From assembly GCA_032229885.1 (NCBI GenBank), contig JAVYAJ010000193.1:2904-66903 (forward strand): 64,000 nucleotides of DNA, given 5' to 3'. Both the position numbers and the translations under genes were made by a program. Each line of letters begins with the position of its first letter. Position 1 is the stretch's first letter. The DNA comes from Candidatus Anammoximicrobium sp. Lineage in GTDB: Bacteria; Planctomycetota; Planctomycetia; Pirellulales; Pirellulaceae. Below, piece after piece: positions 4,047 through 61,257 of the stretch. The notes under the pieces are model-generated. The model was given only the letters and a program-made list of their open reading frames with translations, ran no database searches and was not told where the DNA came from.

Positions 4047-4047
4047 G

Positions 4048-13945: not shown

Positions 13946-16900
13946 ATGACATCGTTGATCTGTGCGCTCGCGACCCAGCTTGTCGCGTTCGGCGCGGCGG
14001 CCGACACGGCGGCCCGGGACGTCGCACCGCCGAAGACCCTGCTGGTTTGCGGGTCCGCCGACAACCCTGTTTCCCAGGGCCTGGCGGCGTTGGACGTGCC
14101 GCACCAACGAGCGACGGTCGCCGCGTATCGCGAAATGTCGCCGTTCGACTTTGACCTGATCATCTGGGGCTTGGACGAGAGCCGCGCGGCGCTGCGGGAC
14201 GATGCGTCGGTGATCGAGGCGTTCGTCCGGGCGGGCGGCGTGTTTTTGGGGTTTCGATCGAGCGACGAAGACGCTTGGCTGCCCGTGCCCGTGCGGCGCG
14301 ATAAAGCGTATGCCTTTGGCGAAATCCTACAGCCCGAGCATCCGATCTTTGGCGGGCCGCATCGACTGGGGCGCGAACACCTGACTCAGGTCCATGGCGG
14401 CAGCATCTACCGCGGGTTATTCGCACTGGGGCCGGGTTGGGTTCCGCTGGTCAGCACCGGCAAGCCGCAGGACTGGGACAAATCCGCGGCCTTGGACGAC
14501 GGACCGCATTACGGGATCGTCGAGCTGCCGCTGGGCAAGGGTCGGATCGTGCTGGTCCAGATGATCCCCGCTTACCATTGGTTCCACGACGCGGAGGGCG
14601 ATGCCAACGCGGCCGGCGCGATGCTGTTCGAGAACTTGGTGCGCTATGCGATCGACCGCGCGCCGCGATCGGCCGCAGACCGCCCGCCGCGGCAACGGCC
14701 CGCCGATTTTGTGACCTCGTATCAGGATCTGTTCCGCACGCCCCAGCGCGGCGATGGCTTGTCGCTGGCCGATCCTGCCTGGAAGGCGTCGTCCGAAGGG
14801 CCGTATTCATGGCAGGTGGATCGTCGCGGCGTGCTCACGCTGACGCATGTCGACACTCCCAGCAAGGCGGGCAACTTTATCCAATTCAGCCGCGCATTGC
14901 CGGTTCCCGAGAGCGGCGGCCCCGTGACGTTGCGGTGGTACTATTCGGACACCTATTGCGGCGGCCGCGAGCGGATTCTGGGCGGCGCCCAGCACGGCCA
15001 GACGGCCCAGGAAAACTTCAAACGCAGACGCCGCGTCGCGTCGGTGCTGGTCGACGGCGCGCCCGTCTGGACGCAGGACGTGTTGGGCCTCAATCCACAG
15101 CCGACGAGTCTTCGGTTTCACCAGGCGCAGTTGTCGCTGCCATCGGATCGAGCCGCGGACGGCATCAAGCTGGCGGTGCGGATCGACGACCTCCAAGATT
15201 CCGGCGACGACCCGTTTGCGATCGACACCTTTTTCGGCGCGATCGAGTTGATCCCGAACCTGTCTCGCGAAGCGATCACTGCCGCGGAAGGGACGGGCGA
15301 CGGATTCGAGTCGGCCGGGACGACGGGCATTCGATTGAAGGGCAATTCAGGCTCGTACCAGGTCGCCCATCGCGGGGCGGCGGGCCGGTACGCCATTGCC
15401 GTGTGCCTGCGGGACGAACACACGGGCCAATCGTCGCTGCGCATCCGGGCTGGCGATCAGATCGCGGGCCAGTGGACGCTGTCCGCCGACGATCATCACA
15501 CCTATTGGGTCGCGACGCCGCCCTTGACGCTTTCGCCGGGAACACCGATTCAGATCGAGGCCCAGCGCGATGGCGACGAGACCGTGACGCTTTTCGAGTG
15601 GGCGATCATTCCCGAACGACTGCTGGCCCGACCCGCGGCGACGCACGGCGAGGGTGCGTTGCCGACACAGGCGGGACGCGAGACGCAAACGTCGCAGCGA
15701 AAAACGGCCGCGTCAACAACGCCTGCGTCAACAACGCCCGCGTCAACACCAGCGGCCTCGCAGCCCGTGCGTTTTTCGGTTGCAATCGCCGAGCTTGCCG
15801 GCGCGGCGCGGCGCGACGAGATCGCTGCCCAGGGGCTGCCATTTCCGTGCGGCTGTTTGCGGCGACCCGACGCGATTCGCGTTCGCGCGCCCGATGGCCA
15901 GTCGGTTCCTGTCCAGACCCGCCAGATCGCGGCGTGGCCCGACGGGACGGCCAAGAGCATCGTGGTCGCGTTTCCGGCTCGCGTGGACGCGCACGGCGTC
16001 GCCGAGTACAGGGTCGAAGCGGGCGCTGGCGTCGAACCCGAGCCGCCAGCGGGCGGGCTGACGGTGCGCGCCGACGACGGGCGGCTGACGATCGACACCG
16101 GCGTGATCATGGCCACGGTCAGCACCCGCCACGGCCGCATCGTGGACGAGATTCGCCGAGGCGAGCGCGTTTTGAAGGCGGCGGACGAAGTGTGGGATCT
16201 GGCCCTGGAAGACGAATCGGGCCGCGTGGTTCGCACGCGCGACGCAGCCGTGGCGGCGACGCAGGTCGTCGAGTCCGGTCCGTTGCGGGCCTTGATCGTG
16301 CGCACCGGTTCATTTGTCGATGCGGCCGGCGCGCTGATCGACTATCGACTGCAGCTCGAGGCCACGGCGGGCTCGGATGCGTTGCGGGTCTACGCCCAGA
16401 TCATCAATCGCGAGGACGAGCCCGAGGTGTATCTGAAACGTTGGTCGCTGGATCTGGATCAGGCCGCGTCGGGCGGGCGTGTGTGGATCGACGCGGCGCA
16501 GACGGCGGCCGCGGCCGCCGGGGACGTGCTGTACCAACATCGCGAAGACACGTTGACGTGGACGGGCGCCGATGGGCGTCGGGAACGCCAGGCCGGCGCG
16601 TCGCCGGGTTACGTGCGGCTGGACGGGCTGGCGGTCGGCACGCGCTGGTTCTGGCAGCGATTTCCCCAGGCGATCCGTTTCAGCGATCACGGCGTGCGTT
16701 TCGACTTCATCCCCCAGGCGTTCGATGATCGCGATCTGCCGACGCGGTGGGCGGAACGGATGCGGCAGACCACGGACCGCTATCCCGTGGGCGGCGTCGG
16801 TTATCCGCAATCGCCCGGCAAGATGGGCCTGTGCCGCTTGGCGCGGGGTCAAGCGTTCAGCCAAGAGATCCTGTTTGTGCTGGACGGCAAACGGACCGAG

Positions 16901-18160
16901 GCGACGGACGCGGACGTGTTCGCGGCCTTGGCCGCCCCGCTGCGCGGCGTTGCATCGCCGCGATATACGGCCGACACCGGCGTGTTCGGCGAGTTTCTAC
17001 CGGCCGATTCGGACCGTTATCCAGAGTATGAACGGGGCGTCGAGCAGACCTATCAGCAAATCCTCGCCCAACGCAAGAAACGGCGCGAGTACGGCTTCAT
17101 GAGTTTTGGCGACTGTACGTTCGAGTGGGGCTACGGCCCGTCGTACACGTACTGGAGCAACGAAGAGTACGACCATCATCACGGCTATGCGATTCAGTAT
17201 CTGCGCAGCGGCGATCCTCGTTGGTGGGAGTTGTGCGAGCCTGCCGCGCGGCACTATCGCGACGTCGTCGTGATTCACCATGCCCCGCCGGACAGCCTGC
17301 AGCAGGGCGGACCGCGGCACCACAATGCTACGTCGCTATGGATGGCTCAGGATCCCGAACAGTATTGGATTGCAGATCATGCCTGCGCCGGCGCCAGCGC
17401 GGGTCACAGTTGGGTCGAAGGGATGATCGACTATTGGCTGCTGACGGGCGATCCGTGGGCCGAAGAGGTGATCCATTCTCTGGAGAACTGGTACTGCGAC
17501 ATCGCCGAGAACAACCGGTTCGGCGCGGGCGGCCAGGAGCGCGGCCCGGGCTGGGCGCTGATCGCCATCTCGGCGTTGGCCAAAGCGACGGGGCGCCCGC
17601 GAACGTACAACGCGGGTCGGATCGTATCCGACTGGATCGTCCAGTGGCAGGATCCGATCCGTGGCGTCGTCTCGGTCCCGATCTCCGAGCAGCCCAGTTA
17701 TGAAGGCGGCTCGACCTTCATGCACGGAATCGTCGGCCGCGGCCTGGGCCGTTGGTACGACGTGACCGGCGACGAACAGGTCCGCCGCGCCGTGGTGGGC
17801 ATCGCCGAGTGGATGACGACCGAGCCGATGGGCGAGCCGGGCACGTTTTGGTACAAGCAAAGCCCGCAGAACAGCCGTCGCTATTCGCCCACCGACCAGT
17901 GCTTGAGCGGGCTGACGTACGCGTATCGGCTGAGCGGCGATCCGTGGTTCGCCCAGGTCGCCGAAGCCCTGGTCGCTCGCACCCGTCCCAACCGCCGCTC
18001 GATCTGCTGGTATCCCCAGGCACTGGCCCATCTGGCCCCGCCCGTGCTAAACGAGCAGCCAAACCGAGTGGGCTCAAAAGAGGCGACGTCGGACGACAAC
18101 TCGCGAGCGAAATCGCGGCGCGGCAGCTCGAGCGCCGACCCCGGCGTCGATCGACAATGA
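13946..18160 (+). CDS. Large secreted multidomain protein (GATase1/ThuA-like N-domain, beta-sandwich modules, C-terminal alpha/alpha-toroid-like domain)
   Basis: 1404-aa ORF with a short N-terminal signal-like segment. The LLVCG...DLIIWG...GGVFLGF layout resembles class-I glutamine-amidotransferase-like folds. A Thr/Pro/Ala linker (TAASTTPASTTPASTPAAS) is encoded by a 15-nt repeat near 15700-15760. The C-terminal His/Trp-rich helical repeats (HHHGYAIQYLRSGDPRWWE..., GHSWVEGMIDYWLLTGDPWA) resemble glycoside hydrolase/lyase toroids. Confidence 0.8.
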   Translation: MTSLICALATQLVAFGAAADTAARDVAPPKTLLVCGSADNPVSQGLAALDVPHQRATVAAYREMSPFDFDLIIWGLDESRAALRDDASVIEAFVRAGGVFLGFRSSDEDAWLPVPVRRDKAYAFGEILQPEHPIFGGPHRLGREHLTQVHGGSIYRGLFALGPGWVPLVSTGKPQDWDKSAALDDGPHYGIVELPLGKGRIVLVQMIPAYHWFHDAEGDANAAGAMLFENLVRYAIDRAPRSAADRPPRQRPADFVTSYQDLFRTPQRGDGLSLADPAWKASSEGPYSWQVDRRGVLTLTHVDTPSKAGNFIQFSRALPVPESGGPVTLRWYYSDTYCGGRERILGGAQHGQTAQENFKRRRRVASVLVDGAPVWTQDVLGLNPQPTSLRFHQAQLSLPSDRAADGIKLAVRIDDLQDSGDDPFAIDTFFGAIELIPNLSREAITAAEGTGDGFESAGTTGIRLKGNSGSYQVAHRGAAGRYAIAVCLRDEHTGQSSLRIRAGDQIAGQWTLSADDHHTYWVATPPLTLSPGTPIQIEAQRDGDETVTLFEWAIIPERLLARPAATHGEGALPTQAGRETQTSQRKTAASTTPASTTPASTPAASQPVRFSVAIAELAGAARRDEIAAQGLPFPCGCLRRPDAIRVRAPDGQSVPVQTRQIAAWPDGTAKSIVVAFPARVDAHGVAEYRVEAGAGVEPEPPAGGLTVRADDGRLTIDTGVIMATVSTRHGRIVDEIRRGERVLKAADEVWDLALEDESGRVVRTRDAAVAATQVVESGPLRALIVRTGSFVDAAGALIDYRLQLEATAGSDALRVYAQIINREDEPEVYLKRWSLDLDQAASGGRVWIDAAQTAAAAAGDVLYQHREDTLTWTGADGRRERQAGASPGYVRLDGLAVGTRWFWQRFPQAIRFSDHGVRFDFIPQAFDDRDLPTRWAERMRQTTDRYPVGGVGYPQSPGKMGLCRLARGQAFSQEILFVLDGKRTEATDADVFAALAAPLRGVASPRYTADTGVFGEFLPADSDRYPEYERGVEQTYQQILAQRKKRREYGFMSFGDCTFEWGYGPSYTYWSNEEYDHHHGYAIQYLRSGDPRWWELCEPAARHYRDVVVIHHAPPDSLQQGGPRHHNATSLWMAQDPEQYWIADHACAGASAGHSWVEGMIDYWLLTGDPWAEEVIHSLENWYCDIAENNRFGAGGQERGPGWALIAISALAKATGRPRTYNAGRIVSDWIVQWQDPIRGVVSVPISEQPSYEGGSTFMHGIVGRGLGRWYDVTGDEQVRRAVVGIAEWMTTEPMGEPGTFWYKQSPQNSRRYSPTDQCLSGLTYAYRLSGDPWFAQVAEALVARTRPNRRSICWYPQALAHLAPPVLNEQPNRVGSKEATSDDNSRAKSRRGSSSADPGVDRQ

Positions 18161-33073: not shown

Positions 33074-33182
33074 TCGGTAATCGCAAATCGCAGTCCGGCC
33101 GAACCCGGCCGCTTGTTCGCGGGACGCGCCGGTCGGCGGCTTTGCGCAGTCCGGATCCCGCCAGCGTGGCGTGGGCAGCCTT

Positions 33183-33293
33183 GGAGGGATGCGCTCCGTC
33201 GCGTCCGTTTCGTTTCGTCGCGTCCATCGCGTCCGCCGTATTTCGCCGTGCTCCGTCACATCCACTCCGTCACGGCCACGACGGAGTGTGGCA
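33183..33293 (+). repeat. Dispersed structured repeat, copy 3 (expanded spacer)
   Basis: GGAGGGATGCGctccgtCGCGTCC, then a spacer of about 65 nt containing extra cgtcgcgtcc/ctccgtc fragments, then GGCCACGacggagTGTGGC. Confidence 0.8.
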
Positions 33294-33657
33294 CGCGATC
33301 AAGTCGTCTCGGCCCCCCAAACGGACGCCCGATCTGGTAGAATCGAAAAACTGCCTGCGGCTGGTCGTGTCCGCCATCTGGTCGTGGCGCGCGACCGTGC
33401 GAGAACGCGTTTTGTCGCTTGCACATCCTGTGCATTCGCCACACAGTGCGCCATTTACTACATTTGGTCCCAGTAGAGGCCGGAATTCACTGCTTTTTGC
33501 CGTGGAACTTGTCGCTAGAAACGCCATCATACGTACAATACATAATCCTTTGGGTTTAGCTGTGATTGGCGGGTCCAAGGGTCGATTGCTACTTGAAGTC
33601 TTTGCGTCCGGCGTGGGCTGTCTGGGAGAGTTCCTGGAGATCTAACGGTATTGGAAC

Positions 33658-35754
33658 ATGTCTAGCGACCAAACAGTCACTGCTGACACGATCGAGCAGA
33701 CCAAGCAACAGATCCGCGGACTGGTGAGCGAGATTGCGCAACTGTCCAAAGGCGATCTTGGTCCGGAGGAGTATTTCCCCGCATTTCTGCAGCGGATCGT
33801 CTCGGCGCTGGCGGCTCACGGCGGCGCGGTCTGGGTGGTCCGCGACGGACGCCGGCTCGATCTCGCGTATCAGATCAAGATGAGCGAGGCGTTGTTGGCC
33901 TCGGATTCGGAGGACGCGCAACGCCATTTCGGCCTGCTGACCCGGATCGTGGCAACGGGCGAGGCGAGCCTGATTCCGCCGTACTCGGGCACGGCAGACG
34001 AGCATGGCGCGGCGAACCTTACCCAGTATCTGCTGGTGTTGGCGCCGATGCGGAGCGACAATCAGGTCGAGGGCATCGTCGAGATCTTCCAGCGCCCGGA
34101 CGCGCAGCCTGTAACACAGCGGGGCTATCTGAAGTTCCTCGTCCAGATGTGCGAGCTGGCTGCCGAATGGCTGAAGACCCGCAAACTGCGGCAGATCAGC
34201 ACTCGCCATTCGCTGTGGGAGCAAGCGGACCATTTCGCGCGTCTGGTGCACGAGCAGTTGGACGTCCGCGAGACGGCATACGTGATCGTGAACGAAGGTC
34301 GGCGGATGGTGGGGTGTGACCGCGTCAGCGTCGGCTTGATGCGCGGCCGGATCTGCAAGATCGAGGCCATCAGCGGTCAGGACACGATCGAAAACCGCTC
34401 GAACATCGTCAACTATCTGGGCAAGCTGGCGACCCGCGTTGTGGCGACCGGCGAATCGATGTGGTTTGACGGGGATGAAGAAGATCTGCCGCCCCAGATC
34501 GAGGAAGCCCTCGACCGGTACATCGACGAGTCGCACACCAAGCGGTTGGCGATTCTGCCGTTGCGTCGTCCAAAGCGTCTGGTGGATGCGCGGGAAACGG
34601 CCACCGGCGAGGCCGACAGCGAGAGCAACGAAGCCAACGAGATCATCGGCGTGTTGGTCGTCGAACAGATCGAGAGCGATCTGCCCGACGAGGTGGTGCG
34701 CTCGCGGACGGATCTGGTCTACGAGCACAGCGCGCGCGCGCTGACCAACGCGGTGGATCACGAACGGATCTTCCTGATGCCGCTGTGGAAGGCCGTCGGC
34801 AAGACGCGGTGGCTGTTTGGGCCGCGGTATTTGCCGAAGACGGTCGCCGCCCTGGGCGCGTTGGTCGTGTTCATGCTGTGCCTAGTGCTGGTCCCCAAGG
34901 ATTTCGAGCCCAGCGCCAAGGGCACCTTGCAACCGGTGGTCAAACGCGACGTGTTCGTGCCGGTCGATGGCGACGTGATCGACGTCAAGGTTCACGATCG
35001 GGACTTCGTCCAGGAAGGCGACCTGCTGGTCAAGCTGCGGAACACCGAGCTCGAGGTCCGCTATCAGGACGTTCTGGGGCAGATCCAGGTCAAACGCAGC
35101 CGCCTGGTGTCCGTGCGACGGTCGCTGTTCGAGCAGACCAACCGTTCCGACGCGCGGTCGCGCGACGAAGTCGAGCGGATCCGCTTGTCGGGCGAGGCCG
35201 AAGAGCTCGAACAGGAGCTAAAGACCTTGGACGAACAGTACCAACTGTTGGCCAAGAAACGCGCATTGCTGGAAATTCGCAGCCCGATCGCGGGCGAAGT
35301 GATGATGTCGTGGGACGTCCAAAAGTCGCTGATGTATCGTCCCGTGCAGATGGGGCAGATGCTGCTGAGCGTCGCGGATCCGCAGGGACCGTGGGAACTC
35401 GAGCTGTATATGCGCGAAAGCCGGGCTGGGCACGTCCGCCGCGCGCGCAGCGATCCGCGGTTGCAGGAGCGTTACCCGGGCGCGGGCGAACGCGTGACCT
35501 ATGTCCTGGCCACCGACCCGGGAACCACTCGCAATGGTACGGTTCGCGAGGTCAAGGGAACGACCGAGATTCGCCAGGAAGAGGGCAACATCGTCATGAT
35601 TCGCGCGGACATCGACCGCGCGCAGCTCGGGGATCCGCATCCGGGCGCGACGGTTACGGGCCAGATCTTCTGCGGCCGGCGGGCGCTCGGTTATGTCTGG
35701 TTTCACGAAGCCTGGGAATGGCTGCAAATTCACCTTCTGTTCTATCTCAAGTGA
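33658..35754 (+). CDS. GAF-like (x2) cytoplasmic sensor region + TM helix + HlyD-type periplasmic adaptor domain
   Basis: 698 aa. The N-terminal ~400 aa form two alpha/beta modules with GAF-like spacing (GGAVWVV...LAPMR...VEGIVEIF; VGCDRVSVGLM...IGVLVVEQ). One TM helix (TVAALGALVVFMLCLVLV). Lipoyl-like halves (VDGDVIDVKVHDRDFVQEGDLLVKL and IRSPIAGEVM) flank a coiled coil, followed by a beta-barrel. Confidence 0.85.
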   Translation: MSSDQTVTADTIEQTKQQIRGLVSEIAQLSKGDLGPEEYFPAFLQRIVSALAAHGGAVWVVRDGRRLDLAYQIKMSEALLASDSEDAQRHFGLLTRIVATGEASLIPPYSGTADEHGAANLTQYLLVLAPMRSDNQVEGIVEIFQRPDAQPVTQRGYLKFLVQMCELAAEWLKTRKLRQISTRHSLWEQADHFARLVHEQLDVRETAYVIVNEGRRMVGCDRVSVGLMRGRICKIEAISGQDTIENRSNIVNYLGKLATRVVATGESMWFDGDEEDLPPQIEEALDRYIDESHTKRLAILPLRRPKRLVDARETATGEADSESNEANEIIGVLVVEQIESDLPDEVVRSRTDLVYEHSARALTNAVDHERIFLMPLWKAVGKTRWLFGPRYLPKTVAALGALVVFMLCLVLVPKDFEPSAKGTLQPVVKRDVFVPVDGDVIDVKVHDRDFVQEGDLLVKLRNTELEVRYQDVLGQIQVKRSRLVSVRRSLFEQTNRSDARSRDEVERIRLSGEAEELEQELKTLDEQYQLLAKKRALLEIRSPIAGEVMMSWDVQKSLMYRPVQMGQMLLSVADPQGPWELELYMRESRAGHVRRARSDPRLQERYPGAGERVTYVLATDPGTTRNGTVREVKGTTEIRQEEGNIVMIRADIDRAQLGDPHPGATVTGQIFCGRRALGYVWFHEAWEWLQIHLLFYLK

Positions 35755-35778
35755 CTCGACGGATCCCGCGCACTCGGA

Positions 35779-36720
35779 GTGTCGGCCATGCATATCACGG
35801 CATTGTTGATCGCGAACCTGGTTCTAGCCGCCCAGCCCGCCGCGCCCCCGCGCAGCGCGGATCCGGCGATTCTAGAGCTGCCCAACTGCCTGATTTCGCT
35901 GATCGACAACGTGGATCTGCCGGCGCAGGAATCCGGGGTGTTGCACGAATTGATCGCCAAGGAAGGCCTGCGGGCCAAAGCGGGAGACGTGTTGGGCAAG
36001 GTCGACGAGACCGAGACGCTGTTGCGGCAGAAGGCGGCCAAGTACAAGCTCGAAGTGGCGACGGAGAAGGCCACGAACGACGCCGAGGTCCGGGTCGCGC
36101 GGGCGATCGTCGATCTGGCGAAGGCCGAGTACGAAGAATCGGTGGCCATCAACGAGCGCAGCGGGGGCAGCGCGATCCCGCCGACGCAGCTTCGCCGCCA
36201 GCGAGTCCAGTGGGAGAAGGCCGCCCTGGACTGCGTCGCCGCGGACATGAATTTCAAGATTGCCGGGTTGGAGCGAAATGTCTCGGAAGCCGAGGTCGAA
36301 GCGGTGGCCAACGAGCTCGAACGGCGGACGTTGCGGGCGCCGTTCGACGGCGTCGTGGTCGAAATGTATCGCCAGCAGAGCGAGTGGGTGCAGCCGGGCG
36401 AACCCGTGCTGCGACTCATCCGGATGGATCGGTTGCGCGTCGAGGGCTTTGTGAGCGCCAGTCAGTATCTTCCCGAACAGGTCGATGGCGCACCGGTCGA
36501 AATCACGGTCGACCTGCCGGGCGCCCAACGGCAGCAACTCAGCGGAAAGATCTCGTTCGTCAACCCTCAAGTCGGTTCCAACCGCGATTACCGAGTCTGG
36601 GCCGAGGTCGACAACTTGCCGGGTTCGGGCGGGTATCCCTGGCTGCTTCGCCCGGGGCTGATCGTCCAGATGCGGATCCGGTTGAACCCGTTGGCCAGCG
36701 CCGCGCCGGGCCGCGGCTAG
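35779..36720 (+). CDS. Secreted HlyD-family periplasmic adaptor-like protein
   Basis: 313 aa. Signal peptide MSAMHITALLIANLVLAAQPA. ESGVLHELIAKEGLRAKAGDVLGKV, a coiled coil, then LRAPFDGVVVEMY...GEPVLRLIRMDRLRVEGFV. It starts 24 nt after the upstream stop. Confidence 0.85.
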   Translation: MSAMHITALLIANLVLAAQPAAPPRSADPAILELPNCLISLIDNVDLPAQESGVLHELIAKEGLRAKAGDVLGKVDETETLLRQKAAKYKLEVATEKATNDAEVRVARAIVDLAKAEYEESVAINERSGGSAIPPTQLRRQRVQWEKAALDCVAADMNFKIAGLERNVSEAEVEAVANELERRTLRAPFDGVVVEMYRQQSEWVQPGEPVLRLIRMDRLRVEGFVSASQYLPEQVDGAPVEITVDLPGAQRQQLSGKISFVNPQVGSNRDYRVWAEVDNLPGSGGYPWLLRPGLIVQMRIRLNPLASAAPGRG

Positions 36721-36816
36721 GCGTTGTGGCTCGCCGGTGGATGCAGCGGCTTCGTCGTCTGCGGCGCTGAGCGACCTTTCATTCAGTGTGATCGTCGATT
36801 CCTCGACGGGATATCC

Positions 36817-39093
36817 ATGGCAACCCTTGCAGAAAGCCTGGTCAGCACGACGTCGCGGCGCCTGCCGTTGCGGATGCGTCCCGATCTGTCGATCCGCAAG
36901 CATCACTATCACGGCGAAGGCTATTGGGTTGTCAAAGAGCCGGTGGGTTTGAACTACTACCGCTTTCACGAGGAGGAGTTCGCCATCCTGCAGATGCTCG
37001 ACGGCCAGACGAGCATGGACGAGATCAAGGAGCGGTTCGAGGCTGAATTCGCCCCGCAGAAGATCACGTTTCAGGATCTGGCCCAGTTCATCGGGATGCT
37101 GCATCGCAGCGGGCTGGTGATCTCCGAGGCGGCGGGCCAGGGCCGCCAGCTCAAGAAACGACGCGACGAAAAGAAACGCAAGGAGTGGCTCGGCCGTCTC
37201 AGCAACGTATTCGCGCTTCGCTGGCGCGGCGTCGACCCGGAACGGTTTCTGAATTGGCTGTATCCGCTGACTCGCTGGATGTTCCATCCGGTCTGCGTGG
37301 CGATGTGCCTGGCGCTCGCGCTGTCCGCGCTGCTGCTGGTGATGGTCCAATACGACGTGTTCTATTCGCGTCTGCCGTCGTTCCACGAATTTTTCGATCC
37401 GCGGGCCGCCAACAAATGGCTATATCTGGCGGTGACCATGGGGGTGGTCAAGGTATTGCACGAGTTCGGCCACGGCCTGTCGTGCAAACATTTTGGCGGC
37501 GAATGCCACGAGATCGGCTTCATGCTGTTGGTGCTGACGCCCTGTCTGTACTGCAACGTGTCCGATTCCTGGATGCTGCGCAACAAATACCGCCGGGCGA
37601 TGATCGGGGCCGCCGGGATGTACGTCGAACTGGTCCTGGCCTCGCTCGCCACGTTCATCTGGTGGTTCAGCGATCGGACCACGCTGGTGAACAACCTGGC
37701 GTTGAACGTGATGTTCATCTGTTCGGTCAGCACGGTGATCTTCAACGGCAATCCGCTGCTGCGCTTCGACGGCTATTACATCCTGATGGACCTGGCCGAA
37801 ATTCCCAATCTGCGGCAGAAGTCCACCGAGGTCTTGAAACGGTTCCTCGTCGGAACGTGCTTGGGTTTAGAGCAACCTGAGAATCCGTTTCTACCGCAGA
37901 AGAACCGCGTCCTGTTCGGGCTGTATACGGTGGCGGCCGTGGCGTACCGCTGGATCGTGGTGTTTTCGATCGTGTTTTTCCTGATCAAGGTTTTCGAACC
38001 GATCGGACTGAAGATCGTTGGTCAGGTGATTGCCGGAGTCGGATTTTTCGGTCTGGTCGTCCAGCCGCTGTGGCAACTGGCGCGCTTCTTCTACTTGCCG
38101 GGGAGGTTGCACAAAGTGAAAAAGCTACGGGTGGTCGCATCGGCGGCAGTCGTCGTAAGCGTGGTGGCCGCCGTCCTTTTTCTGCCGCTGCCGCACTCGG
38201 TCAAGTGCGAGTTCGAAATCCAGCCGCGCGATGCCGCGGCGGTGTACGTCGAAGTCGCCGGACGAGTCGAGCGGATTCTCGTTCGCGACGGCCAGCAGGT
38301 GGACCGTGGCCAGCCGATCGTCGAGCTCAGCAATCCGGACCTCGATCTGGCGGTTCTGAACCTGGAAGGCCAGCACGAGGTCACCCAGACGCGGCTGGCG
38401 ACGATCGAGCGAGAACGCTTCCGCAACGACCAATCCGGTCTGCAGATCGGCCACATATCCGAATTATTGGCGACCACCAAGGCGCAACTCGCCGAGAAAG
38501 AGCGCGAGCTGGCCCGGTTGCGGGTCGTGACCCCGGTGTCGGGAACGATCATCCCCGCGCCGCCGCGGCCCGCGCGCGACGAACTGGTCGATGGCCGCTT
38601 GCCGACCTGGACAGGCTCGCCGCTGGACCCCAAGAACGTGGGCGCGGCGTATGCCGAAGGCGAGCTGTTATGCCGCGTCGGCGACCCGACCGATCTCGAG
38701 GCCCTGTTGGTCGTCGACCAGGCGGACATCGATCTGGTCGACGCTGCGATGGCCCAGGCCCAGCCGGCCGTCAAGTTGGAGGCCGATGCCTATCCGGGGC
38801 GTCATCTGCGCAGCCGCGTCGAGCAGGTCGCCCGCGTCGAATTGAAGGACATCCCAGGCAGCCTGGCGGCGCAGGCCGGCGGGCGGCTCGAGACCAAGGT
38901 CGATCGCGCGTCGGGCGGGGTTCGGCCGATGAGCACCTCGTACCACGCCCGCGTGCCGCTGGATGACCAAGGTCCGTTGAAGGGGCTGTTATGCCCCGGG
39001 ATGAAGGGGCGAGCTCAGATCTATACCCAGTGGCAATCGATGGGCCAGCGAGCGTTTCGTTTCGTAGCTCGCACCTTTCATTTCGAGCTGTAG
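36817..39093 (+). CDS. Fusion: PqqD/RRE-like N-domain + M50 (site-2 protease) zinc metalloprotease + HlyD-type adaptor domain
   Basis: ATG at 36817 within ORF 36724..39093. HEFGH at 37459-37473. Second S2P motif NGNPLLRFDGYY. Multiple TM helices. The C-terminal region has AGRVERILVRDGQQVDRGQPIVEL, a coiled coil, then VVTPVSGTI. The N-terminal YYRFHEEEFAILQMLDGQTSMDEIKERF...FQDLAQFIGMLHRSGLV resembles PqqD. Confidence 0.88.
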   Translation: MATLAESLVSTTSRRLPLRMRPDLSIRKHHYHGEGYWVVKEPVGLNYYRFHEEEFAILQMLDGQTSMDEIKERFEAEFAPQKITFQDLAQFIGMLHRSGLVISEAAGQGRQLKKRRDEKKRKEWLGRLSNVFALRWRGVDPERFLNWLYPLTRWMFHPVCVAMCLALALSALLLVMVQYDVFYSRLPSFHEFFDPRAANKWLYLAVTMGVVKVLHEFGHGLSCKHFGGECHEIGFMLLVLTPCLYCNVSDSWMLRNKYRRAMIGAAGMYVELVLASLATFIWWFSDRTTLVNNLALNVMFICSVSTVIFNGNPLLRFDGYYILMDLAEIPNLRQKSTEVLKRFLVGTCLGLEQPENPFLPQKNRVLFGLYTVAAVAYRWIVVFSIVFFLIKVFEPIGLKIVGQVIAGVGFFGLVVQPLWQLARFFYLPGRLHKVKKLRVVASAAVVVSVVAAVLFLPLPHSVKCEFEIQPRDAAAVYVEVAGRVERILVRDGQQVDRGQPIVELSNPDLDLAVLNLEGQHEVTQTRLATIERERFRNDQSGLQIGHISELLATTKAQLAEKERELARLRVVTPVSGTIIPAPPRPARDELVDGRLPTWTGSPLDPKNVGAAYAEGELLCRVGDPTDLEALLVVDQADIDLVDAAMAQAQPAVKLEADAYPGRHLRSRVEQVARVELKDIPGSLAAQAGGRLETKVDRASGGVRPMSTSYHARVPLDDQGPLKGLLCPGMKGRAQIYTQWQSMGQRAFRFVARTFHFEL

Positions 39094-39164
39094 TCATGCG
39101 GGTTCCGATGAGCCCGAAGTGTGTGTTGTTTGGATCTGTTTCAGGAGAGTGAGGAGATTTAGGA

Positions 39165-39536
39165 ATGGCGGAACAAAACACTGCCCCCGAAGCGACGGAA
39201 ACCCCGGCTGCGGACGCGCCCGCGACCCGTCCGGCTCAGGCTCCAGCGCAGGCCCAGTTGCGCGTCGACGACTCGAACATCGTGGCCCTGTACGCCAACT
39301 TCTGTCGCGTCACCGGGACCCCGGAAGAGCTGATCATCGACTTTGGCCTGAACCCGCAACCGGTCGGCATTCCCACCGAGCCGATCAAGGTCGGCCAGCG
39401 GATCATCGTGAACTTCTTCACGGCCAAGCGGCTGTTGGGCGCGCTGTCCATGTCCGTCCAGCGGCACGAAGCCGTGTTCGGCGTCCTCGAGACCGACATC
39501 AACAAACGGCTCCGCATGCCCCAGGCCGCCGGTTGA
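39165..39536 (+). CDS. DUF3467-like small protein
   Basis: 123 aa with GAGGAGA upstream. Ala/Pro/Thr/Glu/Gln-rich (slightly acidic) N-terminus, then VALYANFCRVTGTPEELIIDFGL, matching the YxNxxxIxxTxxEFxxDF core of DUF3467. Confidence 0.8.
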   Translation: MAEQNTAPEATETPAADAPATRPAQAPAQAQLRVDDSNIVALYANFCRVTGTPEELIIDFGLNPQPVGIPTEPIKVGQRIIVNFFTAKRLLGALSMSVQRHEAVFGVLETDINKRLRMPQAAG

Positions 39537-43473: not shown

Positions 43474-46400
43474 TCAGAACGGGTTCTGCCAGGGGGCGTA
43501 GTTCCAGTTTTGGAACAGGTTCATCGCGGCTCGATCGATGCTATCGGTCTGCGGCAGCAGGATCAGGGCGTCCAGCCAGGCGCCTTGGCCGGCGCCCAGC
43601 GTCAGGCGGTGTTTACCCGCTGTCAGCTCGATGTCCGCGATGCGATACCAGGCCCAGTGATCGTTTCGCTCTTTGTGGAAACGTTTGGTGTTCGCGCGGC
43701 TCGGCGAATCCCAATCTTCGAACCCGATCATCCGTGTGACTCGCAGCGGACGGGCCGACTGGTCGTCCAGCCCATAGGACAGGCTCGGATCGGCATCCAG
43801 CGGCCAGCGTGCGCGAACCCACAGGGCGTGCGTGCCGTTGCGCGAAGCTGTGAAATCAAATCCCAGCCGTCCGCTTCCCGTGAACTCGACGCCGCTCGCG
43901 CCGCTCAGTTCCGCGACGTCGCGGACGCTGGCCATCCCGACCAACTCGTCATGCGTTTCGGCCTCGCGGACCAGCGGCGCCTGCGCCGCCAACACCTCGA
44001 TCCGGGTCCGCCGCTGGGCGTCGCCGTCGCCGAGCACGACCGTCACAGCCTGGATTTCACCGGGCTGCGAGTTCGGTGCACGCAGCACAAACTCGGCTTC
44101 GGCCATCTGGTCCGCGGCAGTCAGCTCGATTGTGTGCCGCTCGGGCGTGCACGTCCAACCCGCCGGCAGATCGGCCAGGCGCACTTCGCCTTGCACACCC
44201 CGGCCATGGAACTTGACCCGTATGGGAACCTCGCCTCCCGGCGCCACGACCAGCACGTTGCGGTGCAGCTCGTCGCCTTCGGTATAGAAGCTCAGCGCAT
44301 CGACGGCAACGGCCAGCTCGCTGCGATACCGTTCGGTCCAACGGCAGGCGGTCGTAATCGGAACCTGCCCCGCGCCGCCGACGAACGCGATGGGGTTCAC
44401 CCCCAGGGCAAGCTTGCCCGGCAGAGCCAGCGACGAGACAACCACGGTGCCGCGGACTTGCAGCCCCTCGACCACGCCCGCGGCGTCGGGCGAAAGTTCG
44501 AGCTTGAGCCAATAGGCATAGCGGGCCGTGACCTGCGCGCGCAGCTCGGCGTCAAGCTCGCCGCGCCGCGCTGCACTGCGCCAGGCCTCGGTCCAGTGCC
44601 GGCCTTCGTCAAACGACAGCGCCAGCCGCACGCCGTCGGGACGGTTCGTCGTATAGACGCCCCGCACGATCGCGTCAGAGAAGATATATGGGCACTGGGC
44701 GCGATAGATCAGGCTCGCCGGCTTGGCTGCGTCCGCGGGCCGCAGCCGAGTCCGGCCATCGTCCAGACGCTCGACGACCATGTTCTCCAGGCTCGTCGCG
44801 TCACCGGCGTCGGTCGGTTCGTACACGATTGCGCCGTTCCCGAACAGCGGCGGGATCTTGGCCAAGGGCAGCGGTTGCCGGTCGCCGGAAACCTCGAACC
44901 AGCGGCCCTCGTTGTGCCAGCATAGGCTCGCCCGTTCGCCGGCTCGCAGCGCGAATCCCATGTCGTGCGGCCGCAGCGCCGTGCCGAACGGAATGCCGGT
45001 CGGACGGCCTTGCAGCCATGCGCAGGCGTCGCCTCCCTGGCGGATCTTCAGGTAGGGATCCTCCTCGATCCGTCGCCGGCCGATGATCGTCGTGTTGTCG
45101 CGATCTAGCCAGAACACACGGGCAGACAGATCAAACAACCGCCATTGGCCTTGGTAAAACGCTTGCTGAAACTGGTGGTGCGTCCCTGAGGCGTCGTTGG
45201 ACGAGATGCCGACGGACAGGAGCAGTTTGCGCAACATGTGGTTCAGCGGGCCGCATTGGTCGTACGGATAGATGTTCAGCGCCTTGAGAAACGTGTACGA
45301 GATCCGCGGACGGTGCAGCGTCGGCAGCGTTTCACAGTACGACGCGTCGTAATAGTGAGCGCTCCGCAGCGCGTAGCGAAACGCCTCGATGGCTTTCGCC
45401 TCGTCGTCGCCCGCCGGCTCGCCCAGCGTAGCGCGAAGGCTGTCCACGCTCAGCGGGACGACGGCGCCGTTGGCTTGCCAGGCCGGCAGCACGGCGGTCG
45501 GCTGTGTCGCCGACCCCTTTGCGGCCGCCTCGTTCGGTGCGGACGCGTCGGCCTTTTCCGCCGCGCGTTCGTAGGTGACGCTGCGCATCAGCGGCGGATA
45601 ATCCCCGCCCACGGTCAGTGATAGGCGATCATTCTCGCCGCTCAGCGTCCGTTCGACGCCATGCTCGCGATATTCGATGTATCGCGGGTCCGGTGGTCGG
45701 GAAAACGGTGTGTTCGTCGGCAGGCGGCCTTCGGCCCGATTGGCCTCGAACAGCGAGACCGGCGCGTGTGGCTGGACGACGACCGTCCGGCTGTCGATTT
45801 CGCCGGACGTCCGCAGTTCGAGCGTCGCCGATTCCTCTTGTGTTGGCAGTTCGAGACACAGATGGCCGCGCACAAACCGATCGTCGCCGGCATGCACGCC
45901 ATGCGGCTCGTTCTCGAAGTGGAACAGCGCGCGGGTATGTTCATCCGTCGTGAACTCGTCGCGCGGCGGCGTGAACGAATCGGCATAGCGTTCGATGTCC
46001 GAGATCCGCAGTTCGTCGATCACGGCCTCGGCCGATTGTCCGACCGCCCCGGACACCTGGCGGCCGATGCACACCTGCATGGGCATGCTGCGGCTGTCCC
46101 GTTCGAAGATCCCGATGCCCTTGGTCGCCGTGCCGGCCGCCTCGAGGCTGCTGGGCCAAGCCGTTGTGCCCGGCCCCTGTCGCGCGACCAACTGACCGTC
46201 GACGAACAGCGCCAGATGCGCGCGGGGGAAATCCCACGTGGCCGCAATATGATGCCAGCGGCCCGAGGCCAGCGGCGCGGGACCGCGCACGACACGAGGT
46301 GTTTGGTCTGCGTCGGCGATCAGGAACTCGAGCTCGTTGCGACCGTCCGCGCCCCGCTTGCGCAACGTGCATTGTCGGCGATGCATATAGGCCACGGAAT

Positions 46401-47715
46401 CGAAGAACACGCGCTCGACGTCGTCGCCCGCGTCCCACGTGGGCTGGCACCAGAATTCCAGCGTCCCGGCCTGCAGGCCCCAGTGAACCGACGCCGGCCC
46501 GGGATCACGGATGCCGCGGGTCAGCGTGCCTTCGGATGCGCCGTTGAACATCAGGAAACGCGGTTCCGTGAACGCAAACCCGCGGTTCAACGGCGCCGTG
46601 CGCAGCGCCCCTGGCACAAAGCCAGCATGGCTGGCCACGGGCCAAGGCCACCGCTCGCCGGGCCGAACGACCATCCGATCCAACCAGACGGTGAAAAAGG
46701 ACTCGGGGCCCGTTACGGCTTTGTTCGTGTCGGCGTCGGTGACGTGGCAGCGAACGCGCACCCGCACGGTCAGCGTCGCCGCATCCGGGCTGAACCGCCC
46801 ACGCTCGCAGAATTGAACCAACTGGCCGCGCGCGAGCTCGATCGTCAACCAGCGCGGATCGACGGCGTATTCCTGGATCAGCGAGCCGTCGGCGCGCGTC
46901 TGTTCGAGCTCGATCGACACCGGCGCGCCGTAAATGGCCCGTTCGGCGAACAAATCGCACTGGAACACCATCTCCTGGCCGGCGAACCGCCGCACATCGA
47001 CCTGTTGGGAAATCGCCGCCTCGCGGTTAGCGTCGGCGGGCGTTGTCTGGTCGACGACGACCGCGAGAGATTGACGGTCGCTGGTATGCGCAAATCGGCC
47101 CAGGCGGATCAGCGGCGCCGAACGCATCTGCCAAGCCGTGGGCAACCCATCGTCCGCTTGTTCGAACCCGGCGTTGACCAGCAGATTTTCCGGCGGCAAG
47201 CGTTCGTCGGTACGTTGCGCGGGCGGCGTGGGGCGATCCGTCGTGTTGAAATAGATGTCGTAGACTCCGCATCGCTCGGGCGTCCCTGAGGCGTACCAAG
47301 CCAGATACGACTCGTGCCGATTCCGGGCCGCATTGAACTCGTCGCGGACGATCACGGGGATCTCGGCCAGGGGCTCCGGCTGGATCACACGGATCGACGC
47401 CGGATCCCATGTTCCGGCCACACCGGCCTGGGCCAGCAATTGCGGAAAATCGATGACCGTCTCGACCGCCCGTTCCGCTCCGTCGCGATACGGAGTGGGG
47501 CGCGTGACCCTGGTGCGAAACTGCCAGGCGTGGTTCCACCAAGCCGAGCCGTCAGCCCCGCTGGCGGCCGCACAAGCCAGAGTCGCAAACACGGCGATGG
47601 CGGGAAGCAAACGCGTGATCGTGGCCGACAGCGCCGCGGTTTGCCGCACGCGCGGGGCGGACGGACGTTGGCGAATCGGTAGCTCGGGTCGCGGGACGGC
47701 AAGGGTCTGTCGCAT
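43474..47715 (-). CDS. Giant secreted protein with LamG/concanavalin-A-like domain, transglutaminase-like core and C-terminal CBM-like beta-sandwich
   Basis: 1413 aa with a signal/anchor LLPAIAVFATLACAAASG. LamG-like region GTLEFWCQP...GRWHHIAATWD...LALFVDGQLV...IDELRISD. Cys/His/Asp arrangement (YDQCGPLNHMLRKLL...THHQFQQAFYQGQWRLFDLS). Terminal CBM-like module. Confidence 0.85.
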   Translation of the reverse strand: MRQTLAVPRPELPIRQRPSAPRVRQTAALSATITRLLPAIAVFATLACAAASGADGSAWWNHAWQFRTRVTRPTPYRDGAERAVETVIDFPQLLAQAGVAGTWDPASIRVIQPEPLAEIPVIVRDEFNAARNRHESYLAWYASGTPERCGVYDIYFNTTDRPTPPAQRTDERLPPENLLVNAGFEQADDGLPTAWQMRSAPLIRLGRFAHTSDRQSLAVVVDQTTPADANREAAISQQVDVRRFAGQEMVFQCDLFAERAIYGAPVSIELEQTRADGSLIQEYAVDPRWLTIELARGQLVQFCERGRFSPDAATLTVRVRVRCHVTDADTNKAVTGPESFFTVWLDRMVVRPGERWPWPVASHAGFVPGALRTAPLNRGFAFTEPRFLMFNGASEGTLTRGIRDPGPASVHWGLQAGTLEFWCQPTWDAGDDVERVFFDSVAYMHRRQCTLRKRGADGRNELEFLIADADQTPRVVRGPAPLASGRWHHIAATWDFPRAHLALFVDGQLVARQGPGTTAWPSSLEAAGTATKGIGIFERDSRSMPMQVCIGRQVSGAVGQSAEAVIDELRISDIERYADSFTPPRDEFTTDEHTRALFHFENEPHGVHAGDDRFVRGHLCLELPTQEESATLELRTSGEIDSRTVVVQPHAPVSLFEANRAEGRLPTNTPFSRPPDPRYIEYREHGVERTLSGENDRLSLTVGGDYPPLMRSVTYERAAEKADASAPNEAAAKGSATQPTAVLPAWQANGAVVPLSVDSLRATLGEPAGDDEAKAIEAFRYALRSAHYYDASYCETLPTLHRPRISYTFLKALNIYPYDQCGPLNHMLRKLLLSVGISSNDASGTHHQFQQAFYQGQWRLFDLSARVFWLDRDNTTIIGRRRIEEDPYLKIRQGGDACAWLQGRPTGIPFGTALRPHDMGFALRAGERASLCWHNEGRWFEVSGDRQPLPLAKIPPLFGNGAIVYEPTDAGDATSLENMVVERLDDGRTRLRPADAAKPASLIYRAQCPYIFSDAIVRGVYTTNRPDGVRLALSFDEGRHWTEAWRSAARRGELDAELRAQVTARYAYWLKLELSPDAAGVVEGLQVRGTVVVSSLALPGKLALGVNPIAFVGGAGQVPITTACRWTERYRSELAVAVDALSFYTEGDELHRNVLVVAPGGEVPIRVKFHGRGVQGEVRLADLPAGWTCTPERHTIELTAADQMAEAEFVLRAPNSQPGEIQAVTVVLGDGDAQRRTRIEVLAAQAPLVREAETHDELVGMASVRDVAELSGASGVEFTGSGRLGFDFTASRNGTHALWVRARWPLDADPSLSYGLDDQSARPLRVTRMIGFEDWDSPSRANTKRFHKERNDHWAWYRIADIELTAGKHRLTLGAGQGAWLDALILLPQTDSIDRAAMNLFQNWNYAPWQNPF

Positions 47716-60147: not shown

Positions 60148-61257
60148 ATGACCCTGCGTCGCGACGTTTTCATGCGGTGGGCGCGGCGGATGGGCCACGC
60201 GATTCTGGCGTTCGTGTCGCTCGGTGTGATCGTTGGACTGGTGCTGTGGCTGGTGGGCGCATTCGAGCCGAAAGTGCCCGACCAGGCAAGTCCTGTCTCG
60301 GCGCGAACCGTCCCGCCCGGGACGAAGGTGGTGGCCGCGCGGCTGCGCACGCTGCCCGTCACGGAGAGCGCCGTGGGCAGCATTCGTGCAGTGCACGAGA
60401 CCAGCGTCGGCAGCAAGCTGCTGGCGCGAGTGCTGGAGGTCAACCTCAAAGCCGGACAGGCCGTCCAGGCCGGCGAGGTGCTGGTGCGGCTGGACGACAG
60501 CGATTTGCGGGCCCGGCTCGAACAGGCGGTGGCGGCGGTACGGGCCGCCGAAGCGGCTCGCGACCAGGCGGCGTCGGAGGAAAAACGCTATGCGCCGCTG
60601 GCCAAGGATCGCAACATCAGCCAGCAGGAGTACGAGCGAACGGTGGCCGCCTTGAAATCCGCCGAGGCCGAACTCCAGCGCAGCCGCGAGTTTGTCAAGG
60701 AAGTGCAGGCGATGTTGGAGTGGGCGACCATCCGAGCGCCGATGGATGGCGTCGTGATCGACAAACAGGTCGACGTAGGCGACACCGTCACGCCGGGAAA
60801 GATCGTCGTCACCCTATTCGATCCCACACGGATGCAATTGATTGCCAGCGTGCGTGAATCGCTGGCGACTCGGTTAAAGACGGATCAAGACATCGGCGTG
60901 ATGATCCAGGGATTGAACGAACAGTGCACGGGGACGATCAGCGAGATCGTCCCGGAAGCCAAGACCGCCAGTCGGACCTTCCAAGTCAAAGTCACCGGTC
61001 CCTGTCCGCCCGGCATCTATAGCGGCATGTTTGGGCGAATCCTGATCCCGTTGGCTGACGAACATGTTCTGGTCATCCCGCGGCAAGCCGTGCGAAACAT
61101 CGGCCAGTTGGAGTTGGTCGACGTTGTCCAGGGGAGCAACGTCGAACGCCGGGCGATACGCGTAGGGCGTGTGCTGGACGACGAGGTCGAGGTCTTGTCG
61201 GGACTGCACGAAGGCGAACAGGTCATTGCAAACGCGGCGCCGGGAGGCGTGTCATGA
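60148..61257 (+). CDS. RND efflux periplasmic adaptor (membrane fusion protein)
   Basis: 369 aa. N-terminal anchor helix, VGSKLLARVLEVNLKAGQAVQAGEVLVRLD, a coiled coil, then IRAPMDGVVIDKQVDVGDTV. The stop overlaps the next gene start (ATGA at 61254-61257). Confidence 0.9.
   Translation: MTLRRDVFMRWARRMGHAILAFVSLGVIVGLVLWLVGAFEPKVPDQASPVSARTVPPGTKVVAARLRTLPVTESAVGSIRAVHETSVGSKLLARVLEVNLKAGQAVQAGEVLVRLDDSDLRARLEQAVAAVRAAEAARDQAASEEKRYAPLAKDRNISQQEYERTVAALKSAEAELQRSREFVKEVQAMLEWATIRAPMDGVVIDKQVDVGDTVTPGKIVVTLFDPTRMQLIASVRESLATRLKTDQDIGVMIQGLNEQCTGTISEIVPEAKTASRTFQVKVTGPCPPGIYSGMFGRILIPLADEHVLVIPRQAVRNIGQLELVDVVQGSNVERRAIRVGRVLDDEVEVLSGLHEGEQVIANAAPGGVS

Follow-up and report, generated by a model that had tools for sequence, protein, structure and literature searches.

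Periplasmic adaptor proteins of the HlyD type normally partner ATP-binding cassette (ABC), resistance-nodulation-division (RND) or major facilitator superfamily (MFS) pumps. The type I secretion systems (T1SS) of giant adhesins (HlyB-HlyD-TolC; LapBCE/LapA; SiiCDF/SiiE) are built around an ABC transporter and one such adaptor, and the accessory Sec systems of Gram-positive bacteria (SecA2/SecY2-Asp) link a dedicated SecA paralog to very large adhesins. Canonical SecA engages SecY via its scaffold, two-helix-finger, and wing regions, and the leaders of ribosomally synthesized and post-translationally modified peptides (RiPPs) are captured by RiPP recognition element (RRE) domains. Here we analyze a cassette of four genes at positions 33658-39536 of a 64,000-nt stretch of DNA (the window) from Candidatus Anammoximicrobium sp. 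(Pirellulaceae; assembly GCA_032229885.1, contig JAVYAJ010000193.1, forward-strand positions 2,904-66,903). The cassette encodes a DUF3467 protein and three HlyD-type proteins, of which one is an M50 protease fusion. On balance, we favor the reading that it would form the core of a system, distinct from the T1SS, for leader-guided secretion and processing; its likely substrates are surface proteins of large to giant size that bear an LExRxLL leader at the N-terminus.

Composition of the cassette

The four open reading frames (ORFs) of the cassette lie on the + strand and are separated by gaps of 24, 96, and 71 nt. They encode a protein with two GAF domains, a transmembrane (TM) helix, and an HlyD-type region (GAF-HlyD; 33658..35754, +, 698 aa), a short secreted HlyD-type periplasmic adaptor (35779..36720, +; 313 aa from GTG, or 310 aa from ATG 35788, the start called in other assemblies), a PqqD-like/M50/HlyD fusion (36817..39093, +, 758 aa from ATG), and a DUF3467 protein (39165..39536, +, 123 aa), whose ATG is preceded at a distance of about 10 nt by AGGAG. 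The window has a GC content of about 0.61-0.69, and the GC content at third codon positions of the four ORFs (0.81-0.85) is that of real genes. This arrangement, the gaps, and the domain assignments had been proposed in an earlier reading of the window from its letters (the original prediction), and they are confirmed by the ORF listing and by hidden Markov model searches. The gene order, together with the creatininase and aldo-keto-reductase genes on its flanks, is repeated in at least six independent assemblies from organisms that are nearly identical, and it is therefore not the product of misassembly.

In the fusion protein, a PqqD/RRE-like domain (residues ~18-103) and a basic helix precede the M50 core (~142-455), which is followed by an HlyD-type adaptor (457-741) and a C-terminal helix (742-754). 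Its Pfam hits to PqqD, Peptidase_M50, and HlyD_D23 are individually weak; the PqqD match (E = 0.006) lies under the Pfam cutoff and the Peptidase_M50 score (26.7 versus a cutoff of 27.2) just below it, and RND_mfp is matched at 5e-12. Among curated families, RiPP proteases match the N-terminal 400 residues best: the NCBIfam model daptide_HExxH (NF041824) aligns with residues 29-403 at 1e-56 (192.7 bits versus a cutoff of 300), and YydH/LiaK (NF058609) matches at 2e-14 (53.9 bits versus 225). In an AlphaFold model of the fusion (pLDDT 76.5), the N-terminus forms a three-strand/three-helix domain (residues 18-103), which is consistent with an RRE/PqqD-like fold. The basic helix follows, and then a helical membrane core to residue 455, an adaptor composed of lipoyl domain, alpha-hairpin (507-533, 539-566), and beta-barrel, and a final amphipathic helix. 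Foldseek matches the modeled adaptor to AcrA, MexA, and MacA at ~1e-11, and the C-terminal region thus has the predicted fold of TolC-docking adaptors; sequence relatives of the fusion in the PDB are limited to marginal lipoyl/adaptor matches.

Both M50 signatures, the zinc-binding and catalytic motif HEFGH (37459..37473, +; H215, E216, H219) and NGNPLLRFDG (37744..37773, +; N310, P313, D318, G319), fall in predicted helices of the membrane core. The seven residues named are invariant in 85 sequences from two phyla, eight of them proteobacterial. To judge from this conservation, the protease is under selection as an enzyme and is not a pseudo-enzyme. The fusion has more than 6000 close homologs; at E<=1e-30, its matches among representatives of 50%-identity clusters number 4428, at least 150 of them over the full length.

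The GAF-HlyD protein has matches to GAF (5.9e-9, residues 202-341), GAF_3 (4.2e-6, residues 42-170), and HlyD_3 (1.7e-6), and a single TM helix is predicted at residues 395-413. Accordingly, the TM helix connects a double GAF module in the cytoplasm to an adaptor region (lipoyl, hairpin, barrel) in the periplasm, and the C-terminus is an amphipathic segment; the protein has no sequence relatives in the PDB. The short HlyD-type adaptor has a hydrophobic N-terminus and matches HlyD_3 (9.4e-19) and RND_mfp (2.7e-26). Both membrane-anchored adaptors, GAF-HlyD and the fusion, terminate in a conserved aromatic/basic amphipathic segment (...YVWFHEAWEWLQIHLLFYLK and ...QRAFRFVARTFHFEL; window 35680-35754 and 39040-39093). 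Their proteobacterial counterparts have similar C-terminal ends, and R745, R748, T753, F754, and F756 are invariant across the M50-HlyD fusion family.

Conservation of the cassette among planctomycetes

We compared the cassette across a planctomycete set of 80 loci from a one-genome-per-species scan, all but two of them labelled Pirellulaceae or other Planctomycetota, with Rhodopirellula baltica, Stieleria, Novipirellula, and Rubripirellula among them. All 71 four-gene loci are colinear, with the genes on one strand and within 8 kb, and contig ends account for most of the "missing" cassette genes. The genes that flank the cassette in the window vary among loci. These data bear out the suggestion that the four genes constitute a conserved module. 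With the proteins of the window as tblastn queries, GAF-HlyD was found in 75, the short HlyD in 77, and DUF3467 in 74 of the 80 loci. An apparent GAF-HlyD/HlyD fusion in Rhodopirellula baltica (L027, 1121-aa ORF) proved to be an out-of-frame read-through artifact of the ORF listing.

In the closest relatives of the window, whose fusion proteins are 52-80% identical to its own, a gene for a truncated SecA paralog is located 1-3 kb 5' of GAF-HlyD on the same strand (loci L001-L008, L026, and L044). This protein belongs to a large Pirellulaceae family with 68-88% identity among the top 120 hits, and NCBI has named one member "SecA 2". Divergently oriented beside the SecA paralog, nine loci (L001-L005, L007, L008, L098, L100) carry a gene for BBP7, a "putative beta-barrel porin"; TolC was not found by tblastn in the planctomycete loci. 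Examples of such outer-membrane beta-barrel genes on the flanks of the cassette are found at L001:2145-3680 (-) and L005:12644-16002 (+), and in L005 FadL/MtrB-like and Porin_O_P-like genes lie directly 3' of DUF3467. A 146-aa ORF without Pfam match (L001:5983-6423, +) overlaps the stop codon of the SecA paralog and is kept in L001-L005 only.

A search for extra conserved genes across the 80 loci yielded a single find, a clade-specific gene for a coiled-coil, zinc-ribbon-like protein. It is positioned divergently and directly 5' of GAF-HlyD in 57 loci of the Rhodopirellula/Stieleria/Rubripirellula clade (e.g., L013:6191-6703 (-) and L027:6079-6417 (-)), is not present in the window, and encodes a protein of 110-170 aa with a coiled coil and a CxxC-containing C-terminal domain. 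Neither a precursor peptide nor a modifying enzyme is conserved in the window or the 80 loci, and no ABC exporter is conserved within 10 kb of the cassette in the 80 Pirellulaceae loci. These findings bear on the idea that the RRE-M50 protease cuts the leader of a small peptide, in the style of daptide or YydF/epipeptide maturation, with the adaptors joining an unlinked ABC exporter. Although the PqqD-like signal and the curated matches to daptide_HExxH and YydH/LiaK speak for RiPP maturation, both scores (193 versus 300; 54 versus 225) stay under the family cutoffs, none of the genes that this explanation calls for is conserved, and the relatives of the fusion adjoin giant genes, not peptide genes (see below). 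We therefore regard this explanation as quite improbable.

Between the SecA paralog and GAF-HlyD, a few loci contain a weak Sigma70_r2-like ORF (218 aa) followed by a 204-aa ORF (L098:12005-13259; L007:5363-5950). The two might encode a sigma factor and its anti-sigma factor, and could thereby tie the M50 protease to a regulatory circuit. Since the catalytic core is of the M50/site-2 protease type, one could envisage that the module serves regulated intramembrane proteolysis, in which the protease cleaves an anti-sigma factor or another membrane regulator, the GAF domains provide the input, and the HlyD regions act as envelope sensors. The pair of ORFs in L098/L099 and the related ORF in L007 would suit such a role. 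However, the sigma-like ORF is confined to a few loci and occurs neither in the window nor in any proteobacterial cluster, and signaling of this kind leaves the three adaptors, TolC, the SecA paralog, and the giant neighbors unexplained, which makes it very improbable.

Related gene clusters in Proteobacteria

With the fusion as tblastn query, PLSDB plasmids of Alpha-, Beta-, and Gammaproteobacteria were found to encode full-length PqqD-M50-HlyD relatives that are 24-29% identical to it (E 1e-30 to 1e-58). All intact proteobacterial clusters that we examined have a giant gene immediately 5'. The fuller alphaproteobacterial form of the cluster holds every component of the cassette in the window. 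On plasmid pMSC49a of Methylosinus sp. C49, the genes for a giant LamG protein (26.5-kb gene), DUF3467, GAF-HlyD, M50-HlyD, a 638-aa truncated SecA, a short HlyD, and TolC follow each other. The order in Mesorhizobium ciceri is giant Ig-like protein (31.5-kb gene), DUF3467, short HlyD, HlyD, M50-HlyD, and a 653-aa truncated SecA, and that in Pseudosulfitobacter is LEPR-XLL giant protein (38.7-kb gene), HlyD, M50-HlyD, SapC, a 674-aa truncated SecA, and short HlyD. Rhodobacteraceae M382 possesses a giant ORF, a GAF-like HlyD, M50-HlyD, and a 652-aa protein.

A simpler form, present in Azospirillum, on E. coli IncF plasmids, on pMSR-1 of Magnetospirillum, in Variovorax, and on the chromid of Cupriavidus metallidurans CH34, is made up of a giant repeat protein, TolC, a short HlyD, a mid-sized HlyD (~430-480 aa) that has one TM helix and an N-terminal domain in the cytoplasm, and M50-HlyD. 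The E. coli cluster (L083; NZ_CP081687.1 44829-64580) encodes a 4460-aa Ig-like protein with the leader ...FALESRQLFDGA, followed by TolC, short HlyD, mid HlyD, and M50-HlyD. It occurs at >=99% identity in 24 of 5426 complete E. coli genomes, in the majority of cases (21 of 25 places) on a plasmid, and insertion sequence elements flank it. The short HlyD proteins of the proteobacterial clusters measure 268-293 aa, and ~270-380 aa in the simpler form. The NGNPLL version of the second M50 signature is common to the window and to the alphaproteobacterial clusters with SecA and DUF3467; the simpler clusters have NLSPFM or NASPFM.

The truncated SecA paralogs of the fuller clusters (638-675 aa; L084:11168-13084, L085:12020-14044, L088:14132-16093) match the SecA model at 1e-172 to 1e-179, over its first two thirds only. 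They possess the SecA_DEAD, SecA_PP_bind, and P-loop_SecA domains and have no wing or scaffold domain. RefSeq lists them as "prepilin peptidase" or "DEAD/DEAH box helicase", and another annotation of these proteins is "SecA". No SecY-like gene was found in any cluster. Since the SecY-engaging scaffold, two-helix-finger, and wing are missing, the truncated SecA may dock on the GAF or PqqD-like domains of the cassette proteins. The Methylosinus counterpart of GAF-HlyD (629 aa) has a GAF match of 5e-13 in addition to HlyD and aligns with the protein of the window over 493 aa (E 1e-14). The GAF region is a conserved part of the system on the cytoplasmic side, and may serve as a ligand sensor or, equally, as a docking platform.

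No ABC, RND, or MFS transporter was present in the 11 proteobacterial clusters read, nor is any such pump a conserved partner in the ~95 loci from the two phyla, as the original prediction had anticipated. Its further statement that an outer-membrane channel is lacking is correct for the window; it does not hold for the system, as TolC is encoded within most of the proteobacterial relatives read and BBP7 beside the close planctomycete relatives. The customary partnership of the HlyD fold still raises the question of whether the proteins of the cassette are spare adaptors for an unlinked ABC, RND, or MFS pump, the M50 fusion being incidental. The window does contain a single pump, which is of the RND type. 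It belongs to a canonical efflux pair at 60148-61257 (+) and 61254 to beyond 64000 (+), 21 kb from the cassette, in which the gene for an HlyD-type adaptor (HlyD_D23 2e-18) overlaps by 4 nt that for an AcrB-type RND transporter (ACR_tran 2e-118) running off the end of the window. This pump has its own adjacent adaptor, and the pair is unrelated to the cassette. With no pump linked to the cassette in the loci of either phylum, and with the fusion to an invariant protease kept across thousands of sequence clusters, we give the spare-adaptor explanation hardly any credence.

N-terminal leaders of the neighboring giant proteins

Six of the seven N-termini of large genes abutting the proteobacterial clusters contain a basic stretch followed by LE(P)RxLL (...DTLEPRVLLNAD, ...EALEPRFLLSAD, ...EALEPRLLLSAD, ...FALESRQLFDGA, MALEPRFMFDAA, and ...MALEARYMFDAA); the seventh, a smaller ELWxxDGT protein of Magnetospirillum, has no such motif. 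The cutoff of the NCBIfam model LEPR-XLL (NF012209) is exceeded by three of the six leader proteins and by a planctomycete DUF4347 protein in L062. The same LExRxLL motif defines the Pfam family Planc_extracel (PF07595), a "planctomycete-specific export signal". With a maximum Kyte-Doolittle value over 12 residues of 0.5-1.8, the leaders have no hydrophobic core and are therefore unlikely to be Sec or Tat signals. Moreover, the leader subtype tracks the machine: LLSAD goes with the NGNPLL-type M50 protease, SecA, and DUF3467, and MFDAA with the NLSPFM-type protease in clusters without SecA and DUF3467.

Leader-bearing genes also adjoin the cassette in planctomycetes. L026 has the order SecA-like, GAF-HlyD, HlyD, M50-HlyD, and then an LESRQLL protein of at least 998 aa that starts with ...RRLKFEQLESRQLLTAE and matches PF07595 ("Planctomycete extracellular"). 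In L098 and L100, genes for cadherin/dockerin proteins of 935-1391 aa (starting ...AEQLEDRRLLSADF, ...SEALENRLLLASDF, and ...CEQLEARTLLSAIP) are found just 5' of BBP7, the SecA-like gene, and the cassette. Upstream of the SecA paralog, L026 further encodes a protein of at least 1430 aa (L026:73-4362, +) with seven SpaA-type domains and RTX calcium-binding repeats, the N-terminus of which lies beyond the fetched stretch.

The sequence RRLxxExLExRxLLA, first described in 2004, is still classed as a putative novel export signal, for which no machinery is known (PMC8567305). In that study, the motif was detected on 52 Tuwongella proteins, and 8 of the 10 longest proteins of T. immobilis are among its carriers (PMC8567305). 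A 2026 preprint reports an LEPRxLL N-terminus on Chlorochromatium proteins of 36,806 and 20,647 aa, which are without known transport signals and have SapC and TolC genes nearby. The original prediction had assumed a peptide or membrane protein as substrate; the neighboring genes instead make large to giant, leader-bearing surface proteins the likelier clients.

By analogy with LapD/LapG, which act on LapA, such proteins might conceivably reach the surface by another export route, with the module serving in their retention and release: it would sense a cytoplasmic ligand through its GAF domains and cleave the leader that anchors the protein, which would thereby be released or activated. Several features fit this picture, since binding of small ligands is a classic property of GAF domains, which the module conserves, the active-site residues of the protease are intact, and the leader is N-terminal, as is the retention module of LapA. 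Yet the giant genes are without an ABC exporter in the clusters inspected and have TolC and three adaptors instead, the fuller clusters contain a SecA-type motor, and the M50 active site faces the inner membrane and not the cell surface. A Lap-like function of the module is thus unlikely.

The DUF3467 protein

DUF3467 (PF11950) is matched at 9e-22 (77.4 bits versus a gathering cutoff of 25). The protein has neither a signal peptide nor a TM helix; its N-terminal ~30 residues are variable, disordered, and rich in Pro, Ala, and Gln, and they precede a core that is very strongly conserved and comprises three strands and two helices, as judged from the alignment and a structural model. It is the most conserved component of the cassette, with a median identity to the protein of the window of 79%; the corresponding medians are 51% (M50 fusion), 46% (GAF-HlyD), and 32% (short HlyD). 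Its co-occurrence with the system, which had been suspected from the window, was confirmed and was found independently in Alphaproteobacteria. PLSDB plasmids hold only four DUF3467 records, and all four lie beside HlyD/M50 and giant-protein genes; in Rhizobium johnstonii, the DUF3467 and M50-HlyD genes are neighbors across the origin of the record. An affiliation of DUF3467 with SecB-like chaperones was not supported (hhalign probability of 0.6% against E. coli SecB, with an approximate SecB sequence as query).

A proposed leader-guided secretion system

Taken together, the data favor the cassette as the core of a system in which a leader guides the secretion and processing of client proteins. 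These clients would be surface proteins that carry a basic stretch followed by xLExRxLL(S/A)AD at the N-terminus. The PqqD-like domain suggests leader recognition followed by cleavage, and the leader would be captured by this cytoplasmic, RRE-like part of the fusion. The truncated SecA paralog, with its DEAD motor and preprotein-binding domain, is the likely motor and would thread the chain at the expense of ATP, probably while docked on the cytoplasmic GAF and PqqD-like regions; DUF3467 may act as a cytoplasmic accessory or chaperone-like factor of this motor. At the membrane, the leader would be removed by the M50 active site. The three HlyD-type adaptors (short soluble, GAF-anchored, and M50-fused) would then build a periplasmic tube that passes the unfolded chain to an outer-membrane channel, which would be TolC in Proteobacteria and may be BBP7 in its place in planctomycetes. 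The entire sequence of events, from an RRE-read leader through SecA threading aided by DUF3467 and M50 cleavage to a three-HlyD tube ending in TolC or BBP7, would amount to a new type of protein secretion in diderm bacteria. We advance this fuller scheme tentatively, as its chances of being correct appear to us to fall slightly short of even.

Several observations weigh against the proposed secretion system, the case for which is built on genomic context and homology. The set does not include an obvious protein-conducting channel. In about 70 of the 80 Pirellulaceae loci, the SecA paralog is absent from the 10 kb around the cassette, and clusters of the simpler proteobacterial form encode no ATPase. 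The proteobacterial evidence stems from only 11 loci read, out of 90 matching plasmid records. In the 64-kb window itself, tblastn revealed no SecA-like protein, TolC, or BBP7, and LExRxLL proteins are encoded in none of its frames; the ATPase, the outer-membrane partner, and the substrates must therefore be encoded elsewhere in this organism. Leader genes are not enriched near the planctomycete cassettes: six genes in 1.45 Mb, in 5 of 82 loci, correspond to ~4 per Mb, approximately the genomic background. In planctomycetes, the substrate link therefore rests on the three arrays described above and on homology to the proteobacterial clusters; the background-level density fits many dispersed substrates but is not in itself evidence for the link. 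Lastly, DUF3467 has no sequence match in the PDB, and a Foldseek search with a model of pLDDT 67 returned nothing below E 0.4.

The interpretation given in the original prediction is upheld in so far as the module is conserved, its protease appears from the sequence to be intact, no classical pump takes part, and the system is uncharacterized; with respect to partners and substrates, it was incomplete. If the proposed system is real, it would provide the export route for the proteins with the "planctomycete-specific signal peptide" and for the LEPR-XLL giants, including the largest bacterial proteins known. It would constitute a candidate apparatus that has parts common to at least two phyla and spans thousands of 50%-identity sequence clusters, and DUF3467 and the planctomycete "SecA 2" would gain a first functional context. 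The present annotation of its components ("HlyD family efflux transporter", "prepilin peptidase", "DEAD/DEAH box helicase") is uninformative or wrong. A tractable relative is available on E. coli plasmids.

Other features of the window

The cassette is preceded by a non-coding spacer of 584 nt (33074..33657, +), which presumably holds the promoter. Together with the creatininase gene, this spacer takes the position that the SecA paralog (in L001-L008) and a small ORF occupy in the close relatives. No precursor-peptide ORF, promoter, or terminator that is conserved or above shuffle expectation was found around the cassette. A 1413-aa LamG-domain protein is encoded 4 kb 3' of the cassette (43474-47715, -); since its N-terminus resembles an ordinary hydrophobic signal and has no LExRxLL leader, this protein does not suggest itself as a client. 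Likewise, a 1404-aa protein (13946-18160) has an ordinary N-terminus. The window also contains an iron-uptake pair (2826-6300, +), in which the gene for a 406-aa protein that joins a DtxR-type repressor domain to FeoA domains precedes feoB (750 aa).

Comparison with known systems

No characterized system of this composition, the absence of which from the record had already been suspected, is described in the searchable literature, subscription journals being outside its coverage. Because of this, and because the annotation of the parts is generic or wrong, we place the assembly outside the characterized kinds of secretion system, a placement that we consider somewhat better than an even guess. 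An inner-membrane engine composed of an M50 protease and a SecA paralog would be unlike that of any characterized secretion system.

Efflux pumps and proteases offer partial parallels. The adaptor fold (lipoyl, alpha-hairpin, beta-barrel) is shared with the tripartite pumps AcrAB-TolC, MacAB-TolC, and EmrAB-TolC, but the sole polytopic membrane domain here is a protease; as there is no RND, ABC, or MFS transporter, the system is not an efflux pump. With the site-2 proteases RseP and SpoIVFB, the fusion has the M50 catalytic core and an intramembrane active site in common; it differs from them in having no PDZ or CBS domain, no conserved sigma/anti-sigma partner, an adaptor fusion, and a secretion-type neighborhood. 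The RRE-containing M50 proteases of the daptide and YydH-LiaK RiPP systems are homologous over the N-terminal 400 residues, with HExxH and NxxPxxxxDG, whereas the protein studied here carries a fused periplasmic adaptor of 300 residues, scores under the family cutoffs, and has giant proteins, TolC, and the SecA paralog as neighbors in place of precursor and tailoring genes.

The accessory Sec systems resemble the proposed one in the linkage of a dedicated SecA paralog to very large adhesins with atypical N-terminal signals. In contrast to them, the SecA found here is truncated (no scaffold, wing, or C-terminal domains), SecY2 and Asp proteins are absent, the hosts are diderm, and HlyD and TolC take part. 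Of the known systems, it is the T1SS for giant adhesins that the cassette system works most like: the two have in common HlyD-type adaptors, TolC (in the proteobacterial relatives), an adjacent gene for a giant repeat-rich protein, and, presumably, the one-step transport of an unfolded chain. They are set apart by the ABC transporter, which occurs in no cluster here, by the SecA-type ATPase of the fuller clusters, and by the number of adaptors, one in T1SS as opposed to three here, one M50-fused and one GAF-fused. They also differ in the signal, which is C-terminal, RTX-type, and uncleaved in T1SS and an N-terminal basic stretch with an LExRxLL leader here, the C-termini not having been analyzed systematically. 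With its N-terminal signal and without an ABC transporter, the system falls outside the definition of a T1SS, the secretion machinery that it otherwise most resembles.

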